DNA of 51,466 nucleotides from Firmicutes bacterium CAG:475 (GCA_000434435.1 FR895540.1:1-51466), one strand, 5' to 3'. Positions 3,205-34,373 are shown, numbered from the stretch's first letter. Made by a program: numbers and translations. The notes: generated from the sequence alone by a model not told the origin.

Positions 3205-4638
3205 TCAGTCTTTGACAATCACGGTTACGTCAAGAGGTTTCTTTGCCAGCCTTATAAACTTTGTCCCTTCGACTTTGGTGTTTCCTAGATATATCTTCGT
3301 ATCATCACCGCGCATTATATGCATTGTGTGCGTTGTGCCTGCGTTTTCAAAAACGACGTCGGCTTTAAGAATGTTTTTCGGCAAATGCGGACAAATACGC
3401 AAAACTTCATTTGTAGTCGAAATGCCGAAATTTAGGTTTTCAAATTTGTATATCGGTTCAAAACTATTCTCAAAATCAATAATTTTTGAAATACTTTTGT
3501 TAGATTTGTTTTTTTTATCACTGAAAAACACTCTCATAAAAAAATCGGAATTCAACGCGGCGGCAAGCATCGCAATATCTTTTTTATGCGAGATTATGCA
3601 AAGCTCTTTATCGAACAAATCGACCTTTTTCACCTTGCTATGCCCTGCCGACGCGCTTTGCATATATTTTTCGACTCTGATGGCATACATAAACTCGTCG
3701 AGGTTTTCCTTATCGCTCAATGCGCTCGCAACACCCAAAAACGCCGATTTTTGATTTTCCGTCGCATTTGAAAAAGACGAGAACTTGTCGTATATTTCAA
3801 GCGGCGAATAGTATCTTGAAAAGTCGAAACACAAAACACTCCGTATGCTGTCGATCACTCTTGCATACGTGGTGTAAAGTCCGTCCATTACGCCTTCGAG
3901 AGTTCCCTTGTTCGTTTTGTTGTAGTTTGCCTCTATCATGCAAAGTTCCAAAAATAGCTTAGACTTTACGAAACTTTTGATTTTTTTGCTGTTTTGCAGC
4001 GAGAAACTGTCATTGACATACTTCTTTGCTAATTTGCAAACCTTCGCAATCGTCTTTAAATTTTCAAAAATATAGTACGTTTTTTCGAGGATTGCATACA
4101 AAAACGCTTCTTTCATAGTTGACATTTCAACGTAAGTGAGTGTTTTACGCTTGTTTTGTTCGTTGACGAGGATTCTGAATCTGTCCTCGGTAAATATCCA
4201 TCCGCTTGACGACATGCAAAGTTTTGCAAGCAAAACCGAGCGCGGAGTTTGATTTATCGACGGTGCGTCGCAAAGGCAAGAAAAATCTATTTTGCAAAGC
4301 TGTTCGATTGCTTGTTTATCCTCGCAAAAATCGGCAAATATTCCCTTGTACTTTTTTTGTTTTAAGAGAAAAATATTCGTTTTTATGTGCCTTTTGAAAA
4401 ATTTGTCGTTTATTTGACTTGTTTTTTTTGGAATCGGCGTATCCAAAACGAACGCCTTGCATTTTTCAAGGTATCTCTTTTCGTCGAGTGTTGCCTGCCA
4501 CTCCTCTTTCGGCTTTTTTTTGACGATGAAATATACTATCAAAAATGCCGAAACAACGATTATCGTCAGTGCGTACGCCATATCGGAATTATTGCCAAAA
4601 GCGCGAAATTTAGTATCTAAATACGCAATTGTGCGCAC
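3205..4638 (-). CDS. hypothetical protein with an N-terminal transmembrane anchor; no family recognised
   Basis: This is a 477-aa ORF with one TM helix (AYALTIIVVSAFLIVYFIV followed by KKKPKEEW). It is clearly more AT-rich and K/N/F/I-rich than all neighbouring genes. The start is uncertain (GTG at 4638 or ATG at 4581), and neither has a good SD. Confidence 0.6.
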   Translation of the reverse strand: MRTIAYLDTKFRAFGNNSDMAYALTIIVVSAFLIVYFIVKKKPKEEWQATLDEKRYLEKCKAFVLDTPIPKKTSQINDKFFKRHIKTNIFLLKQKKYKGIFADFCEDKQAIEQLCKIDFSCLCDAPSINQTPRSVLLAKLCMSSSGWIFTEDRFRILVNEQNKRKTLTYVEMSTMKEAFLYAILEKTYYIFENLKTIAKVCKLAKKYVNDSFSLQNSKKIKSFVKSKLFLELCMIEANYNKTNKGTLEGVMDGLYTTYARVIDSIRSVLCFDFSRYYSPLEIYDKFSSFSNATENQKSAFLGVASALSDKENLDEFMYAIRVEKYMQSASAGHSKVKKVDLFDKELCIISHKKDIAMLAAALNSDFFMRVFFSDKKNKSNKSISKIIDFENSFEPIYKFENLNFGISTTNEVLRICPHLPKNILKADVVFENAGTTHTMHIMRGDDTKIYLGNTKVEGTKFIRLAKKPLDVTVIVKD

Positions 4639-4688: not shown

Positions 4689-5012
4689 CGCGAGTTAGCC
4701 GGACGGTCGCATGAAATATTTGAGGAAAGTCCGAGCATCACAGGGCATGGGTGCCGGGTAACTCCCGGTGAAGGCGACTTCAAGGACAGTGCAACAGAAA
4801 AAAACCGCCGCATTTGCGGTAAGGATGGAAAGGCGAGGTAAGAGCTCACCCGCAATTTGGCAACAATGCGCGATGTAAACCCCACTCGATGCAAGATCGG
4901 GAGCATAAAAAGTGGCCCGCAAGCTCCCCACATCGCTTGAGGCGTGCAGAAATGTACGTCCTAGATAGATGACCGTTCAAGACAGAACTCGGCTTACAGA
5001 CTAATCTCGCAT
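4689..5012 (+). ncRNA. rnpB: RNase P RNA (bacterial, type-A-like)
   Basis: The universal P4 motifs GAGGAAAGUCCGAGC (about 4721-4735) and ACAGAACUCGGCUUACAG (about 4982-4999) are present, along with GGGUGCCGGGUAACUCCCGG and AGUGCAACAGAAA. The 5' GCGAGUUAG and 3' CUAAUCUCGC can form P1. The ORFs called here (4679..4933, 4695..4931, 4846..5106) are spurious. Confidence 0.88.
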
Positions 5013-5015
5013 ATG

Positions 5016-8140: not shown

Positions 8141-8387
8141 AATTATATGAATTATACAACATACGCAAGGTTTATTCAAGTGTAAACACAATTTTTATTA
8201 AAAAATTGTATAAATCATACGTTTCTATACAATATGCAAAAATTTTAGGCAGCACAATCAAATCATATCAAGCGATATGTTATCGGTTTTTATCACATTT
8301 ATTGAAAATATACAGAAATTTTCCGACCGGTTTCGTATCTACCCCAAAACTCAATTTCGGCGTATCGATTGACATATTCGCATTGTT

Positions 8388-8717
8388 TTGTATAATAAAA
8401 ATATGATTCAAACCATTCTTGCCATTTCGGAATTTGCAACCAAACTCGTCGCAGGACTTTCCGGCGTCGTTTTCGGCGCGTTGATTTTGGGGCTTGTCGT
8501 CGGTGCAAAAAACAAAAAACCGAAAGATATCAACCCAGAAGAGCTCAAACGAAAAGCAAAAGAGCAACCTGTCGAGGAAGAAAAAGCGACGAAGAAATCT
8601 AAAAAATCCAAAGTGGACAAGCAAGACAAAATCGACGGCAAAGATAAGGTCGAAGATGCAACCGAGGCTAACTCAAAGGAACAAAACGACAATCAAAATT
8701 CATCCGAAAATAAATAA
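8388..8717 (+). CDS. small membrane protein with a lysine/glutamate-rich tail (hypothetical)
   Basis: The 109-aa ORF (or a start at MIQTIL, 8403) has one TM helix (LSGVVFGALILGLVVGA) followed by a K/E/D-rich tail. A clean intrinsic terminator follows directly. It runs opposite to the surrounding operon. Confidence 0.5.
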   Translation: MYNKNMIQTILAISEFATKLVAGLSGVVFGALILGLVVGAKNKKPKDINPEELKRKAKEQPVEEEKATKKSKKSKVDKQDKIDGKDKVEDATEANSKEQNDNQNSSENK

Positions 8718-8718
8718 A

Positions 8719-8744
8719 AGACACGCAAAGCGCGTGTTTTTTTA
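8719..8744 (+). terminator. intrinsic terminator
   Basis: The sequence is ACACGC aaagc GCGTGT followed by TTTTTTT, immediately after the stop at 8717. Confidence 0.7.
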
Positions 8745-8859: not shown

Positions 8860-9582
8860 TTAACAGCAAAATGGTTTTTTCAAATAAAGGAGATATTCAA
8901 CGTTTTTGTTTTCGTATCGTATGGGAGAAATCGAAAGGTCGAGTATCTCGAACCCGACGGATATCGCATAGCTTTTTACGCTCTCCACCGCTCTTTTACG
9001 CAATTTTTCATCGGTTACTATACCGCTTTTGGTCAACGCCGACTTGTCGAGCTCGAATTGAGGTTTGACAAGCACCACCGCTTCGCCGCCGTTTTTGAGC
9101 AAGTCGAACATTGATTGCAATACATATTTCAACGAAATAAAACTTACGTCGCTGCACAAAAAATCGACTTTTTCAAGGATTTTTGGCAATTCTCTTGCGT
9201 TTGCCTTCAAAAAATCGACTTTACCGCTTTCAAGCAACTTTGAGTCGAGCGCGCAATCGGCAACGTCAACCGCAAGCACGTGCTTTGCTCCGTGTCTGAG
9301 CAAACAATCGGTAAAGCCGCCGTTTGAGCATCCTATATCCGCACAATTTTTGCCGTTTACGTCAAGTGAAAAATCATCGAATGCTTTTTCGAGTTTATAC
9401 GCGCCTTGCGAGGCATAGTTCTCGTCGTTGACGATTTCTATATCGTCGTTTTCGCCGACGTCCAAAGAGGATTTCGTCACGACTTTTCCTCTCAAAAGTA
9501 CACTGCCGGTTTTTATCAAATTTTCGGCATAGGTGCGAGATTTGAGATTAAATTTGTCTTGAATGTATTTGTCTATCCTCAT
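8860..9582 (-). CDS. tlyA: TlyA-family rRNA (cytidine-2'-O)-methyltransferase
   Basis: An S4 domain forms the N-terminus (MRIDKYIQDKFNLKSRTYAENLIKTGSVLLRGKVV) and is followed by an FtsJ-like SAM motif (DIGCSNGGFTDCLL). Confidence 0.9.
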   Translation of the reverse strand: MRIDKYIQDKFNLKSRTYAENLIKTGSVLLRGKVVTKSSLDVGENDDIEIVNDENYASQGAYKLEKAFDDFSLDVNGKNCADIGCSNGGFTDCLLRHGAKHVLAVDVADCALDSKLLESGKVDFLKANARELPKILEKVDFLCSDVSFISLKYVLQSMFDLLKNGGEAVVLVKPQFELDKSALTKSGIVTDEKLRKRAVESVKSYAISVGFEILDLSISPIRYENKNVEYLLYLKKPFCC

Positions 9583-9634: not shown

Positions 9635-10525
9635 TTATTTCGATTTTTTGTCCTCTTTGAGTTCGTCTTTGTGCTCTTGCGTCTTTGCTTCCTTTTGTTT
9701 TTTGCGGATTTTCCTTTCGTCCTTATTGAAGATTGCAAGCACTCTTGCAACAAACATCACAAAGTCTTTGGAGTTGGATATTGCGATTTTTTTCATAAAC
9801 GCCTTGCCGCCTATCGTCATTGCCGAAACTATTGCCGACACGGCGATTGACAACACGATTTGCCACGTTTGCTGAAGGCTCATTGTGATTTTGACAACCA
9901 AAGCCGCCGAACACGCGCCCGAAATAATGCTGAAAATATCGCCGACGATATCGTTGCAAACGCTGGATACGGTATCGCTGTTTTTCGTGAGCCAAAGAGC
10001 CGTTTTTGCACCGTAAACCTTGCGCGATGCCATGGAAAGTATCGGCGTTGTGTCGCAAGAAGTCACCGCAACGCCGATTGCATCGAACAATATACCCGAC
10101 AAAATCAGGAACGCAAGCAAGACGATCACCACGACGATTTGTTCGGCATTCGAAACGATTTCGCTCAAATACGAGAAAAAAGCAGACAAAACGAGGGATA
10201 TAACGGTTGCCTTGATCCACCAAACGTTGCGCTTTTTCTTGGACGATTTTTTCTTTTTGTCGTCCTTTTGAGATTTATCGCAGTGTTTCGAATCGTGGTT
10301 TTCGCTCTTTTTATCTTCTTTTTGCGTGAACGTCGAACATGTTACCGTGTCCGGATTTTTGTCGGACGGCAAATTTTCGTTTGTGAGGGTCGGAGTATTA
10401 GAAATGCTGTTATTTTGAATATCTAATGAGGTTTTTTGCTCTTCGTTTGCAATGGGAACATCAGCCTTGTCGTTTTCAAACGAAGGATTTTCATCAATAT
10501 TGTTGTTTGACGGTTGCATATACAC
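9635..10525 (-). CDS. oapA: integral membrane protein, candidate OLE-associated protein A (DUF21/CNNM-like TM domain with an N-terminal low-complexity extension)
   Basis: The 296-aa product has about 105 N-terminal aa of N/S/T/K/D-rich low complexity. Four predicted TM helices follow (WWIKATVISLVLSAFF..., VVVIVLLAFLILSGILFDAIGVAV, a segment with the D-x3-D motif NDIVGDIFSIISGACSAALVV, and WQIVLSIAVSAIVSAMTIGG). The SD GAGGUG precedes the ATG at 10525. The gene lies directly downstream of the large structured RNA and upstream of tlyA. The CDS call is solid; the oapA assignment rests on context and architecture. Confidence 0.6.
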   Translation of the reverse strand: MYMQPSNNNIDENPSFENDKADVPIANEEQKTSLDIQNNSISNTPTLTNENLPSDKNPDTVTCSTFTQKEDKKSENHDSKHCDKSQKDDKKKKSSKKKRNVWWIKATVISLVLSAFFSYLSEIVSNAEQIVVVIVLLAFLILSGILFDAIGVAVTSCDTTPILSMASRKVYGAKTALWLTKNSDTVSSVCNDIVGDIFSIISGACSAALVVKITMSLQQTWQIVLSIAVSAIVSAMTIGGKAFMKKIAISNSKDFVMFVARVLAIFNKDERKIRKKQKEAKTQEHKDELKEDKKSK

Positions 10526-10540
10526 CTCAAAAAAGTCTAT

Positions 10541-11120
10541 GTAATGGTGGCAACGCCTCGGGTAAACCTTGCGCCATAGGTTCGGTAGGTTTTCCCTGAC
10601 TCAAAACTCGTCGTCGCCGTCCGAGAAGTTTCCTATTGCATGAGTCATCTCAAAGAGAAACCGAATCGCCACTTAGAGCACACTATAATCCCCGAGCCGC
10701 CTCGCATGAACAGTCTAGAAGATTTCCTTGACAGATTCCGCCCGCCCTTATCTTTTTTTGCAAAGAGGATTTCACAAGGCGATCGCCACTCGTTGTTGCG
10801 CAACGCCGAGAAGCGTGGTTCCTTGATCCCTCCAAATCACTCAAAGCAGGCTACACTGTACACAGCGCAGATGCACCGCATATCAGGTTTAACCCCGGTC
10901 AGTAAGCGAATGTTACCTCGTCTACCGAATCGGGTCTCCACGGAAATTGGGTCGGGGTTTGCATGCCGTTGCAAGCCGCCCAAAAACCTTAACTCCCAGC
11001 AACAGCCCCAATTTGGGCAAAAGAAGCCATCACCAGAAACTTCATCGATATGCCCTTCGGCGATATTTTACCCCCGCCTCCGAGTCGGTGGAATCTGACT
11101 AGAATACTGCACCACCATTT
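10541..11120 (-). ncRNA. ole: large structured noncoding RNA, candidate OLE (ornate, large, extremophilic) RNA
   Basis: There is no minus-strand ORF in the 700-bp gap between recG and the membrane-protein gene. A consensus promoter lies immediately upstream. The terminal helix pairs 5' AAUGGUGG (11119..11112) with 3' CCACCAUU (10549..10542). Internal helices include AAAUUGGG/CCCAAUUU (10944-10951 with 11007-11014), a UUGCA/UGCAA hairpin (10959-10974), CGUUG-loop-CAACG (10791-10805), and CUCGG/CCGAG (10556-10560 with 10620-10624). The length of about 580 nt and the synteny (RNA, membrane protein, tlyA, nadK, argR, recN) fit OLE. This has not been verified with a covariance model. Confidence 0.6.
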
Positions 11121-11126
11121 ATAAAT

Positions 11127-11154
11127 ATTATATCACATTTCAAGAATATGTCAA
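11127..11154 (-). promoter_or_regulatory. consensus sigma-A promoter driving the large ncRNA (TTGACA-16-TATAAT)
   Basis: On the minus strand, TTGACA is at 11154..11149, the spacer is 16 nt and ends in TGTGA, and TATAAT is at 11132..11127. The predicted TSS of about 11120 coincides with the 5' strand of the terminal helix. Confidence 0.6.
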
Positions 11155-11227
11155 ACGGGCGTATTATGTTGAACAAACACAAATAATAAATTGGTTGTCA
11201 AATATTCAAAATACATTATGCGCCTTG

Positions 11228-13255
11228 TCAGCTGTTGAGTGTAACGGCTCCGAGTTCGGCAAGAAAATCGTCTATTCCGGATTTTGAAGTTCTGGTAAGA
11301 GCCAAAAGTTCGCTTAATGACAAGTTTGAAAGATTTTTCTCTGCGTATTCTTTTGCGTTTGAGAGGATTTGAGCATTGATTTGCAATGAAAAAATCGGCG
11401 TAAGCGAACGACCGCTTTGCTTGACTCCGAGAAAATCCCCCGCGCCACGCATGGCAAAATCCATTTCGGCAAGATATTGCCCGTCGTTTGATTTTTCAAG
11501 AGTTTCAAGACGTTGAATTGCCCTTTCGCCCTTATTTAACGAGTGCAACAAACAATGAGCTTCACTTCCGTCACGTCCTACACGTCCTCTCAACTGGTGC
11601 AAAGAAGAAAGCCCGAATCTATCCGCGTTCAAAATCAAAATCTCGCTTGCTTTTGTATCGATTCCGACTTCTATGACGGTTGTTGCAATCAAAAGTTGCG
11701 TTTTTCCGCTCGAAAAGTCTGCCATAGCCTGTTCTTTTTCATCGTTTTTAAGTTTTCCATGCATCACGCAAATTGAAAAATCACCGAATAGATTGCCGAA
11801 ATCTCTCAAAAAACTTTCAATCGACATCAAATTGTTGCCCTCTGCGTCCACAATGGACGGACAAACAATAAACGCTTGTTTACCCCTCTTCAATTTGTCG
11901 ATGACAAAGTCGACGGCAGAATGTAAATCGTCGTATACTTTTGTAGAAACGTTTGTTTCAGCTTCTTCCCTCTTTTTTATATGCGAAATAGCAATGTCCT
12001 CATAAAATGTCAACGCCATAGAACGAGGTATCGGGGTTGCCGTCAGGCTCAATACGTCGACCGCACCCTTTTGTTCCAGCCTTGCTCTGTCGTTTACGCC
12101 GAATCTATGCTGTTCGTCAATGACGGCGAGCGCAAGGTTTTGATACTCGACGTCGTCCGATACAAGTGAATTTGTGCCGATTACGCATTGATAATAGCCG
12201 TTTTTCAGTCCCGCAAGCACTTTTCGTCTTTCTGTTTGAGACAGCGAACTCGTAAGCAAGGCAAATCTGATTCCCGTGTCGCTTGCGATTTGAGCAAACT
12301 TCTTTGCATGCTGCTTGGCAAGAATTTCCGTGGGAACCATAAGAGCCGCTTGTTTGCCGCCCTTAACAGCTGCGTACATTGCGAAAAATGCGACTGCCGT
12401 TTTTCCGCTTCCGACGTCGCCGCTGACAATTCTCGACATGTATTTGTCACCGTTCATGTCGGAAAAAATATCCTCAAAAGCCTGAAACTGACTGTCGGTC
12501 GGTTCAAAATTTAGCGTCGAAACATAATCAAGTATTCTAAAATTCTCAAAATTATAAAATACTTTCCTCGATTTTTGAGTGCTTCTGCGAAGTTTTCTGT
12601 AAATTGACAAAACGATTGCCAAATCAATCGACGCAAGCGAATCTATCGCCCTATCTGCGATATTCAAACTTGTCGGTCTGTGTGCCGCCTCGAAACATAA
12701 TGCCAAATCTTTGTTTACCTTGGCAAGACTTCCCTCATAATTTGCGCCTTTTAAGTTGTCCAATGCGGAATAAACGATATTTTTGAAAGCGTTTTGTCCC
12801 ATAACGCTGCCGAGCGGATACAAGGTATAGATACCGTCAAGTTTGGATATTCTTTCGATTTTTTCAAGCGATGGATTGACGACGGTAAGCGAGCCTATAT
12901 CGTTTGTCAATCTCGTTAACAATCTGTACGACTGCCCGATTGAAAAACCATCGTGCAAAAACGGCATATTGTAAAACATTGCTTTGAAATATACTTTGTT
13001 GTTTGCAAGATTGTCGCTGAAAACGACGAAGAAAGATTTTGTTTTTGAGCGAGTCACGCCGGATAGACTCTCAACCCTGCCTTCAAGCAAACAAAGTTGA
13101 TTGGGTTCGGCATCCAAAACTTTTATAGGTTCTTTGAGATCGATATACTTTCTAGGCAAAAAAGAAAAGACCTCGAATACCGAATGTATATCAAGGTCGT
13201 GAAGCTTTTTTATCGTTGCGTCACCGACGCCTTTGACATCGCGCAACGTAAGCAT
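11228..13255 (-). CDS. recG: ATP-dependent DNA helicase RecG
   Basis: The 675-aa product has an N-terminal wedge/OB region, SF2 helicase motifs (GDVGSGKTAVA, DEQHRFG, SLTATPIPRS) and a C-terminal QLRGRVGR. Confidence 0.95.
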   Translation of the reverse strand: MLTLRDVKGVGDATIKKLHDLDIHSVFEVFSFLPRKYIDLKEPIKVLDAEPNQLCLLEGRVESLSGVTRSKTKSFFVVFSDNLANNKVYFKAMFYNMPFLHDGFSIGQSYRLLTRLTNDIGSLTVVNPSLEKIERISKLDGIYTLYPLGSVMGQNAFKNIVYSALDNLKGANYEGSLAKVNKDLALCFEAAHRPTSLNIADRAIDSLASIDLAIVLSIYRKLRRSTQKSRKVFYNFENFRILDYVSTLNFEPTDSQFQAFEDIFSDMNGDKYMSRIVSGDVGSGKTAVAFFAMYAAVKGGKQAALMVPTEILAKQHAKKFAQIASDTGIRFALLTSSLSQTERRKVLAGLKNGYYQCVIGTNSLVSDDVEYQNLALAVIDEQHRFGVNDRARLEQKGAVDVLSLTATPIPRSMALTFYEDIAISHIKKREEAETNVSTKVYDDLHSAVDFVIDKLKRGKQAFIVCPSIVDAEGNNLMSIESFLRDFGNLFGDFSICVMHGKLKNDEKEQAMADFSSGKTQLLIATTVIEVGIDTKASEILILNADRFGLSSLHQLRGRVGRDGSEAHCLLHSLNKGERAIQRLETLEKSNDGQYLAEMDFAMRGAGDFLGVKQSGRSLTPIFSLQINAQILSNAKEYAEKNLSNLSLSELLALTRTSKSGIDDFLAELGAVTLNS

Positions 13256-31450: not shown

Positions 31451-33100
31451 ATGGTAAATTTTGATGAAATCGATTTTTTGGAAAGTGAAATCGTCGATGA
31501 CGATGACAATGCCCCTGTCGGCACTTTGATACATATCACCGATGACGGCAAAGTAGAAGAAATCAAACCCGAAACACAATCCGCCCTTTCGTACAATTCT
31601 CTCGAGTCGACGGACAAAACCGCCGGTTCAACCGACGATATACAAGAAAAATCCGATGAACTTCCCTCCGACGCCGACAAGACCGAATCGGCTGACGCTC
31701 TCGACGTCACGACAACAGACTTGCAAGACGATCAACACGATCTAGTCGAAGACGCATCGGAGCAAATTGTCGACGAAGATGTCGTAACGCCCGTTGACGA
31801 AACGCCTGTTGAGGAGTTGAAAGCGGAACCCGAAAACGAGAATTTGCCGGTTGTCGAAACTCCGCAAGATATTGAAATCTCCGATTCCGAAGAAAACGAT
31901 TCGCTTGGAAACACAGCCGAGCCGACTGTCGACGAGAATGCACAAGACGCTCAACCCGTTCAATCTGTCGAAGAACCCGTTGCCGAAGTCGTGCAAGACG
32001 CCGTCGAGCAGAACGAACAGGCTCCTGTTGCAGACCAAAACATGCAAGAAGAAGCAACCGAAACTGCCGAACCGGTCATCGATACTACTCCCAAGCCCGT
32101 TAAGAAAAGAAAACCCGCCCAAAAGAAAGTTGCCGAGCCTGCTCCCGTCCTCAATGACGAAGCTCACAAAACGGCTCTCAACCTCAAGAGCGGAAAATCC
32201 GTCAACGATGAGTTGTTCGACACGAATTTCGAAGTCGAGAAACCTGCAAAAACAAAGGTTGTATCCACAAAGAAGAAACAGGAAAAAGCAGAGGATTTGT
32301 GGGCTGTCGCTACAGTCGTAAAGCCCAAGAAAGAGATCGCAACCGCCGAAGAAAAAACGGAAGTCAAGTCTGCAAACAAATCTTCAAAGTCCGCGCCCAA
32401 AGCGCAAAAGCAGTCCGACGATGCACAAGTTGCCACCAAAAAGACCGCATCCAAAAAGTCAACAAAAGTTGAAAATACAAAAACACCTACGGAGGAAAAG
32501 AAAGTGGCAAAAGCAACGGACAAAACAACCAAACCGGTTCAAGAAGAAAAACCCGTGAAAGCAACCAATACTGCAAAAGCTCAAAAAGAAACTCCCGTCA
32601 AAGAAACGGCTGTAAAAGAATCTCCCGTCAAAGGAGATAACGCTCCCAAAGCAACGAAAACCGTCGAAAAGGATGAGGAAACCGTCCTCGTTGAAGGCGA
32701 AGGCAAAGTTCACGGCAAATACGTCATCAAAAAGACGGACAAAGGCAACTTTGTGTTTAAGCTTTTCTCCTCCAACTATAGAGTCGTGGCAATCGGCGCA
32801 CAAGCCTACACCACTCTCGGCGCAGCTAAAATCGGCGTGCAAAGCATCATCAACAACGCAGAAAAAGCCCCCGTCGAAAACCAAACGCTCAAAAATTACG
32901 AAACCCTCAAATTCCCCAAATGGGAAATTTATCTCGACAAAAAAGGCGAATATCGTCTTCGTTTGTACGCAACCAACGGCAGCCTCATCGCAACCACCAA
33001 CGACGGTTATGCGGACATCAGCGGCGCAAAGAACGGCATTGCCGCAGTTGCAAGAGCAAGCAAGGGTTGCGCAATCGTGAGAAACGACAACCTTTGGTAA
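31451..33100 (+). CDS. protein with a long acidic then lysine-rich low-complexity region and two C-terminal YegP/DUF1508 repeats
   Basis: GGAGGA lies 11 nt upstream of the ATG. Residues 1 to about 220 are D/E/P/V/Q-rich and residues about 220-420 are K/A/T/E-rich. The C-terminus carries two repeats: GKYVIKKTDKGNFVFKLFSSNYRVVAIGAQAYTTLGAAKIGVQSI and WEIYLDKKGEYRLRLYATNGSLIATTNDGYADISGAKNGIAAV. Both fit the YegP pattern. A strong terminator follows. Confidence 0.8.
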   Translation: MVNFDEIDFLESEIVDDDDNAPVGTLIHITDDGKVEEIKPETQSALSYNSLESTDKTAGSTDDIQEKSDELPSDADKTESADALDVTTTDLQDDQHDLVEDASEQIVDEDVVTPVDETPVEELKAEPENENLPVVETPQDIEISDSEENDSLGNTAEPTVDENAQDAQPVQSVEEPVAEVVQDAVEQNEQAPVADQNMQEEATETAEPVIDTTPKPVKKRKPAQKKVAEPAPVLNDEAHKTALNLKSGKSVNDELFDTNFEVEKPAKTKVVSTKKKQEKAEDLWAVATVVKPKKEIATAEEKTEVKSANKSSKSAPKAQKQSDDAQVATKKTASKKSTKVENTKTPTEEKKVAKATDKTTKPVQEEKPVKATNTAKAQKETPVKETAVKESPVKGDNAPKATKTVEKDEETVLVEGEGKVHGKYVIKKTDKGNFVFKLFSSNYRVVAIGAQAYTTLGAAKIGVQSIINNAEKAPVENQTLKNYETLKFPKWEIYLDKKGEYRLRLYATNGSLIATTNDGYADISGAKNGIAAVARASKGCAIVRNDNLW

Positions 33101-34280: not shown

Positions 34281-34373
34281 GGAGAAGTCGCCTAGTTTGG
34301 TCGAGGGCGCGCGACTGGAAATCGCGTAACCGTCAAAAGCGGTTCAAGAGTTCGAATCTCTTCTTCTCCGCCA
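34281..34373 (+). tRNA. tRNA-Ser (anticodon GGA), CCA encoded
   Basis: The acceptor stem pairs GGAGAAG with CTTCTCC. The anticodon stem-loop is CGCGA CUGGAAA UCGCG. The long variable arm is ACCG ucaaaag CGGU. The T arm is AAGAG UUCGAAU CUCUU, followed by GCCA. Confidence 0.92.

Follow-up and report, generated by a model that had tools for sequence, protein, structure and literature searches.

What is encoded in the gap between recG (11228-13255, minus strand) and oapA (9635-10519, minus strand) of Firmicutes bacterium CAG:475? The window that we analysed is the whole 51,466-nucleotide (nt) stretch FR895540.1:1-51466 of assembly GCA_000434435.1, and an earlier reading of its sequence, here called the original prediction, had proposed that this gap holds a candidate OLE RNA, a large bacterial noncoding RNA (ncRNA) whose name stands for ornate, large, extremophilic. 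Our findings make it almost certain that the gap does encode OLE RNA, at 11120-10543 on the minus strand (about 577 nt). The feature is an ordinary member of a known RNA family in the kind of host where that family is expected, and its novelty is low.

The identification comes from a scan of the whole window with 4227 Rfam families at their gathering thresholds, which produced three matches: OLE, RNase P RNA and one tRNA. The OLE model (RF01071) matched 11131-10531 on the minus strand with 413.7 bits (E 3.5e-118), eight times its gathering score of 50, and the match was not truncated, running through model positions 1-616 of 616. The OLE RNA gene is listed here as 10531-11131 (minus strand) from the extent of this match; the folded RNA, measured from one strand of its closing helix P1 to the other, occupies 11119-10543 and is about 577 nt long. 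When 10300-11400 was searched again permissively (E up to 1, the same 4227 families), no family besides OLE was returned, and ROOL, GOLLD, HEARO and raiA, the controls that had been suggested alongside RF01071, gave no match in that interval; the proposed test thus placed OLE far above gathering with all four controls negative. About 25% of positions in the OLE family are more than 97% conserved, and at the upper-case consensus positions of RF01071 the window RNA is identical at 219 of 249 (88%). Six of the 30 mismatches are accounted for by a deleted tip of the P13 hairpin and by the palindrome in loop L9.3, both of which are discussed below.

Does the predicted structure show the marks of selection? 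Covariation was assessed in 66 distinct full-length homologues, the window and 65 other genomes, in a MAFFT alignment that was not structure-fitted; the Rfam consensus structure was projected onto it from the window row and P1 was added, giving 161 pairs in 20 helices. Standard pairs filled 84.9% of the cells, compared with 70.9% in column shuffles and 41-47% when the partners were slid. Changes on both sides were seen for 120 of the 161 pairs, and the number of cells changed on both sides was 1700, against 621 in the shuffles; none of 500 shuffles reached the observed covariation values. The comparison of orthologous spacers that the original prediction had called for therefore supports the family structure strongly. 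P1 deserves separate mention, as the structure line of RF01071 leaves its ends unpaired. A P1 stem does form part of the published OLE model, and the 5' ends of B. halodurans OLE map to where that stem begins (PMC3413148). In the window the 5' strand of P1, AAUGGUGGU (11111-11119, minus strand), pairs with the 3' strand, GCCACCAUU (10543-10551, minus strand), both by covariation and in the single-sequence minimum-free-energy fold. A closing helix had been proposed here from the sequence; its pairing holds, and only the position of its 3' strand has to be corrected, since CCACCAUU lies at 10550-10543 and not at 10549-10542. Each of the six pairs of the P1 core, GGUGGU/GCCACC, is formed in 65-66 of the 66 homologues, with exchanges between GC and AU (14 sequences) and between UA and CG or GC, an innermost pair that may be CG, UG or UA, and one lineage in which AGGGUA/UACCCU replaces the core. 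The outer pairs, AAU/AUU, are formed in only about 60-70% of the 66 sequences.

Could the same region encode a protein? Such a reading would call on an antisense open reading frame (ORF) of 152 residues, rich in P, R and S (10640-11098, plus strand), or on sense ORFs of 48-53 residues. The antisense ORF does exist in the window and public gene callers have placed a gene on it: at loci L001-L005 a 152-residue hypothetical protein is annotated at 10640-11098 (plus strand), antisense to OLE. This ORF has no Pfam match on record, its stop-free run varies from 51 to 185 codons among the homologues, with the frame broken in most of them, and conservation in the region follows the RNA helices, with compensatory changes, and not codon positions. 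The ORF listing showed no substantial sense-strand frame between recG and oapA, and a search across the homologues for a conserved protein-coding frame, named in the original prediction as something that would count against an RNA, found none. We regard a coding function as extremely improbable, and the 152-residue annotation is a gene-calling artefact produced over a structured-RNA gene. The description of the gap as non-coding is upheld by these results; the antisense frame is not its only ORF, given the sense ORFs of 48-53 residues, and the G+C content of the OLE region is raised only modestly (0.51, against about 0.39-0.46 in the flanking genes).

How would the RNA be transcribed? A sigma-70-type promoter for ole lies at 11127-11154 (minus strand), exactly as had been claimed, and agrees with the consensus at 12 of 12 positions: the -35 box TTGACA at 11154-11149 is followed by a 16-nt spacer and by TATAAT at 11132-11127, and to these we add a TG at 11135-11134 that makes an extended -10 element (TGa-TATAAT). 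The -10 box ends 8 nt 5' of the P1 helix, and the predicted start of transcription is near A11120, about 7 nt past the -10 box, the base that precedes P1. Across the recG-linked clade (about 40 genomes) a TTGACA-N16/17-TATAAT promoter is kept 8-10 nt before P1 and its spacer varies in sequence; we take the promoter to be functional because its position relative to P1 is fixed while the spacer drifts. The ole gene of B. halodurans has an experimentally active proximal promoter, with the 5' ends of the RNA again mapping to the start of P1 (PMC3413148).

The limits of the transcription unit were approached with a scan for terminator-like patterns. None was found between recG and the ole promoter, so that read-through from recG into ole may occur, and none between the OLE RNA and oapA, whose Shine-Dalgarno sequence GAGGUG, present as predicted at 10528-10523, and ATG at 10519 follow P1 by 14 and 23 nt, respectively. 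Downstream of oapA lies a gene for a tlyA-type rRNA 2'-O-methyltransferase (8860-9582, minus strand), which has Pfam FtsJ and S4 domains and reaches 182.6 bits with the NCBIfam TlyA model, below its equivalog cut-off of 250; it probably closes the unit. In the minus direction the first hairpin that could plausibly act as a terminator is ACACGCGCUUUGCGUGU (8721-8737), with U runs on both strands, 122 nt past the end of the tlyA ORF. We consider it a candidate end both for an ole-oapA-tlyA transcript and for a convergent small gene and, since it is the first to be met and lies beyond tlyA, ole-oapA-tlyA is the likely transcription unit. As a separate observation, 26 of the 66 homologues have a run of at least five U residues within 20 nt of the 3' strand of P1. 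This run directly abuts P1 in seven distant lineages (L060, L070 and L058, for example), a terminator-like geometry in which the long-range P1 is the stem. In the window the U-run (10534-10529) is 12 nt from P1, just before the Shine-Dalgarno sequence, and runs into the ribosome-binding region.

[quoted passage not shown] We file the 294-residue product of 9635-10519, adjacent to OLE, as OapA because of a CNNM-like match, a DxxxD motif, four hydrophobic segments and a match to CorB. The CNNM domain (PF01595) scores 28.4 bits, exactly at the Pfam cut-off, over residues 137-267; no other Pfam domain was found, and no NCBIfam model matched the protein. The four hydrophobic segments fall within residues 104-241 in a simple Kyte-Doolittle hydropathy scan, in agreement with the small four-transmembrane protein of the original prediction. 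Residues 190-194 read DIVGD, and D[IV][IVL]GD is present in every homologue that we examined; the DxxxD motif is distinctive for OapA and is missing from true CNNM domains (PMC11332333). The best sequence match in the PDB is to CorB (7M1T/7M1U) and is weak (E 0.74); 7M1U is the top structural match that has been reported for predicted OapA (PMC11332333). OapA is 230-340 residues long in the clade of the window, compared with about 180-245 in distant relatives, and the extra length consists of a fast-evolving N-terminal extension of about 97 residues, rich in K, N, S and D, and of a K/E-rich C-terminal tail. The extension is probably cytoplasmic, as the basic run KKKKSSKKKR sits directly before the first membrane helix. 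Apparent fusions of OapA to Dxs at three loci (L065, L083 and L076) proved to be artefacts: a stop codon separates the two genes.

Why, then, is recG the upstream neighbour? The original prediction had singled out this gene as atypical when set against ispA and dxs. We collected relatives as one genome per GTDB species, using the transmembrane part of OapA as the query, and obtained 80 loci with 38-97% identity. Almost all of them come from metagenome-assembled genomes (MAGs) of uncultured gut or rumen Clostridia (Clostridia bacterium, Clostridiales, Christensenella sp.), one of which is a complete 1.65-Mb chromosome; with gut and rumen Clostridia MAGs as its nearest genomes, the host belongs among the anaerobic or extremophilic Bacillota. 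The exact OapA protein is found on at least 8 metagenome contigs with identical gene order, and public data contain more than 120 near-identical variants (at least 97% identical), which marks this as a commonly sampled organism. When the loci were searched with nhmmer and the window OLE, about 75 of the 80 proved to have an OLE immediately before the oapA homologue, and those without it are mostly contigs that end there.

Gene orders were established by tblastn of the window proteins against all loci and by Pfam searches on the neighbours of selected distant loci. Relatives whose OapA is less than about 55% identical have the order xseA-ispA-OLE-oapA-dxs-tlyA-nadK-argR-recN, in some cases without tlyA and/or nadK, and about 40 species-level genomes with OapA at least about 65% identical have fakA-recG-OLE-oapA-tlyA-nadK-argR-recN. 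Locus L047 is intermediate (fakA-recG-OLE-oapA-dxs-tlyA). It has been reported that dxs often adjoins ole and oapA (PMC10898510). The position of recG is a stable, clade-wide rearrangement in which the isoprenoid genes left the locus while ole-oapA and the DNA-repair and metabolism genes downstream stayed. Distant relatives thus keep ispA-OLE-oapA-dxs, as the remark on recG had implied, and the tlyA-nadK-argR-recN block, cited earlier as typical OLE context, is common to both arrangements. These findings also dispose of the fallback that was offered if the OLE model failed, namely an unclassified large structured RNA that resembles OLE only in size and context. It has the unusual upstream neighbour in its favour and nothing further, and it is opposed by the end-to-end match to RF01071, by the identity at conserved positions and by the covarying family structure. 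We exclude it because of that match, the covariation, the OapA features and a rearrangement that accounts for recG, and consider it vanishingly improbable; the candidacy as OLE RNA, with a full-length match, a covarying structure and an OapA-type gene downstream, is borne out.

Some individual loci in the set call for comment. At L028 (7672-8850) a T5orf172/DUF4357 (GIY-YIG-like) protein is encoded directly upstream of OLE and replaces the recG side, which points to either the insertion of a mobile element or the breakpoint of a rearrangement there. An apparent second copy of the locus in CP091723.1 (L023, 24944-45471; L044, 1629795-1647214) is not a duplication: its two stretches share 99.8% identity over 17.3 kb, with 28 small indels as the main difference, and reach the end of the record. 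The repeat probably arose in a long-read assembly whose circular overlap, about 42 kb, was left untrimmed. Five MAGs (L009, L010, L017, L019 and L045) are labelled Bacteroides sp., Phascolarctobacterium succinatutens, Butyrivibrio crossotus or Bacteroidaceae; these labels look like binning or labelling errors.

What does the inside of the RNA tell us about its partners? Apart from P1, P13 and P14.1, helix names were assigned from helix order and the published text. Two of the internal helices that had been read from the sequence agree with the family consensus. One, UUGCA/UGCAA (10974-10959), is the P4a-type hairpin CUUGCAACGGCAUGCAAA (10958-10975, minus strand), which aligns to the Rfam consensus ccgCAAuGGCAUGcgg, has a covarying stem that is 99.4% paired and carries the invariant AA.GGCAU and a GCAUGC palindrome. 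Binding sites for OapA map to palindromes in or near P2 and P4a (PMC12265935); from the order of the helices we take this hairpin to be P4a, the region reported as one of those sites. The other, CGUUG/CAACG (10805-10791), is the tip of the P9.3-type hairpin. Two further proposed helices, AAAUUGGG/CCCAAUUU and CUCGG (10625-10621)/CCGAG (10561-10557), clash with well-supported consensus helices and do not covary: only 62% of their cells are paired among the 66 homologues, with a covariation score of 0.088 against a shuffle mean of 0.089, and they were rejected. In the consensus the partner of CCGAG at 10561-10557 is CUCGG at 10696-10692.

The P9.3-type tip, CGUUG-CGCAA-CAACG (10791-10805, minus strand), contains the self-complementary 8-nt sequence UUGCGCAA (10803-10796), which occupies the position of the L9.3 GGCC dimerisation loop in a register that depends on the alignment. 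GGCC is found at L9.3 in 37 of the 66 homologues and AGCU in 10 distant ones that keep P9.3; GCGC is found in the window and its 11 closest relatives. Switching among the palindromes GGCC, GAUC and AGCU has been taken to support an intermolecular kissing loop, B3 (Kretsch et al., PMC12286853), and the GCGC of the window clade is a further self-complementary variant, consistent with dimerisation.

The P13-type hairpin, UCUC-UUU-GAGA (10648-10658, minus strand), is truncated by a 10-column deletion relative to Rfam (model positions of about 486-495). The 10 nt that are missing are the GNRA tetraloop tip, the primary OapB-binding site; OapB of B. halodurans binds with high affinity only when the P13 GNRA loop and a bulge are present (PMC7936274). 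GNRA tips (GAAA, GUAA, GCGA, GUGA) are kept at P13 in relatives from L042 outwards and are lost in the window clade. The P14.1-type tip, CG-GCGA-CG (10612-10619, minus strand), aligns to Rfam GGcgACg, is nearly invariant in the 66 homologues and retains its GCGA loop; the P14.1 GNRA tetraloop is a weak secondary OapB site in B. halodurans (PMC7936274). Nucleotides of the P13 OapB site are also lost in 'variant 1' OLE RNAs, from reduced-genome gut clades that lack OapB and OapC as well (PMC11332333). A P13 GNRA tetraloop on a bulged stem occurs in most OLE RNAs but not in all, and its absence is not disqualifying since these variant OLE RNAs lack it too. As the P13 site is deleted, the OLE complex in this clade of gut Clostridia probably functions with no OapB bound to P13.

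What might the RNA do in this bacterium? Work on H. halodurans and C. acetobutylicum (PMC12265935, PMC12286853, PMC3413148) provides a mechanism that could apply by analogy. As in other species, the cell would express OLE RNA strongly from the RNA's own promoter, and the RNA would either share a transcript with oapA-tlyA or arise from it by processing. The stable RNA would fold and homodimerise through conserved loop contacts, which here would include the L9.3 GCGC palindrome, and the four-helix, CNNM-like OapA would hold it at the cell membrane. The resulting ribonucleoprotein may aid tolerance of excess Mg2+, short-chain alcohols, cold and poor carbon sources, probably through modulation of divalent-ion transport through OapA.

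We found nothing that contradicts membership of the OLE family; the account as a whole does have points against it. In the window sequence 25 of the 155 consensus pairs are non-canonical, and folding that sequence by itself gives only a modest advantage over shuffles (z -1.98). The start of transcription, the 3' terminus, the amount of RNA and its co-transcription with oapA are all inferred, and what is said above about stress and ion transport is taken from work on H. halodurans. [quoted passage not shown] One might then ask whether the locus holds a decaying, non-functional OLE remnant, with the MpfA-type transporter having perhaps taken over. This is the direction in which the deleted P13 GNRA tip, the absence of ispA and dxs from the locus and the CNNM-CBS-CorC protein would point, and defective ole genes have been described, as rare cases, in organisms without OapA (PMC11332333). 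Against decay, an undamaged oapA stands next to the RNA, 88% of the positions that are highly conserved in the family persist, and across about 40 species-level genomes compensatory evolution has maintained the same architecture, perfect promoter included. OLE-bearing species are reported to carry at most one MpfA paralogue, and loss at P13 is typical of the functional-looking variant 1 RNAs (PMC11332333). We judge decay to be very unlikely.

The features peculiar to this clade invite a bolder suggestion, a rewired OLE particle in gut Clostridia that does without OapB at P13, in which the extension of OapA replaces a partner protein, the UUGCGCAA loop makes a stronger contact, isoprenoid synthesis is genetically uncoupled and an MpfA-type transporter coexists with the complex. 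The sequence differences behind this suggestion are observed; their functional meaning is speculation, and we offer the rewired particle as a tentative idea that is unlikely to hold.

The window has other features that stand apart from the OLE locus. A second perfect TTGACA-16-TATAAT promoter lies at 8369-8396 (plus strand) and its expected start of transcription is the ATG at 8403, from which a 104-residue protein is encoded (plus strand) with one hydrophobic segment, a K/E/D-rich tail and no family match. The mRNA of this gene looks leaderless because transcription is expected to begin at the ATG itself and no Shine-Dalgarno sequence precedes it; the gene is antisense between tlyA and nadK, and ends at the two-way terminator-like hairpin at 8721-8737. 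RNase P RNA of bacterial class A (4691-5013, plus strand; Rfam, 245 bits) is opposite in strand to recN and to an unannotated ORF of 477 residues (3205-4638), for which no family match was found. A tRNA with a long variable arm at 34281-34370 (plus strand) has the anticodon GGA, read from the Rfam alignment, which indicates tRNA-Ser. One of the few plus-strand genes, at 31451-33100, encodes a 549-residue protein in which only two C-terminal repeats of the DUF1508 / HVO_2922 family are recognisable.

OLE is among the largest bacterial ncRNAs whose biochemical role is unsettled, and each correct annotation has some value for that reason; the spurious 152-residue antisense gene recurs across the assemblies that carry this organism. 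The locus also amounts to a natural dissection, in which the RNA, its promoter and oapA have stayed together, ispA and dxs have left and the principal OapB site is gone. This agrees with published work, in which OapA is regarded as indispensable and some lineages can dispense with the isoprenoid linkage and with OapB. The GCGC of L9.3 adds one self-complementary sequence at the proposed dimer contact. These details of the clade (P13 loss, GCGC, an extended OapA, unlinking from isoprenoid genes and one MpfA-type gene) refine themes already in the literature to a modest degree, and leave the current understanding of OLE as it is.

How does the system compare with those already described? Set against full-length OLE (RF01071; Halalkalibacterium halodurans, Clostridium acetobutylicum), the window RNA is alike in length (about 580-600 nt), aligns with every consensus helix from P1 to the 3' domain and retains the conserved single-stranded blocks; it differs in the P13 tip, in L9.3 and in a reduced small hairpin at model positions 424-435. 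The loci are alike in having a proximal promoter just 5' of P1, oapA directly downstream and the tlyA-nadK-argR-recN block further on, and they differ in that the window has recG upstream in place of ispA and no dxs after oapA. Compared with the OapA of distant relatives, the protein of the window adds the low-complexity N-terminal extension and the K/E-rich tail; compared with MpfA, it resembles the CNNM transmembrane domain weakly, lacks CBS and CorC domains and has the DxxxD motif. With OLE variant 1, which is commonest in the TANB77 clade (Fernando and Breaker 2024, PMC11332333), the RNA shares an uncultured gut origin, with only 1.65 Mb in the complete chromosome of one relative, and the loss of the P13 OapB site. 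Variant 1 has shortened P7, P8 and P9, whereas the corresponding stems in the window are near full length, with a 3-nt gap in one loop, and for this reason we do not file the RNA under variant 1. The window RNA is best described as an OLE RNA of the full-length type with a deletion of the P13 tip.

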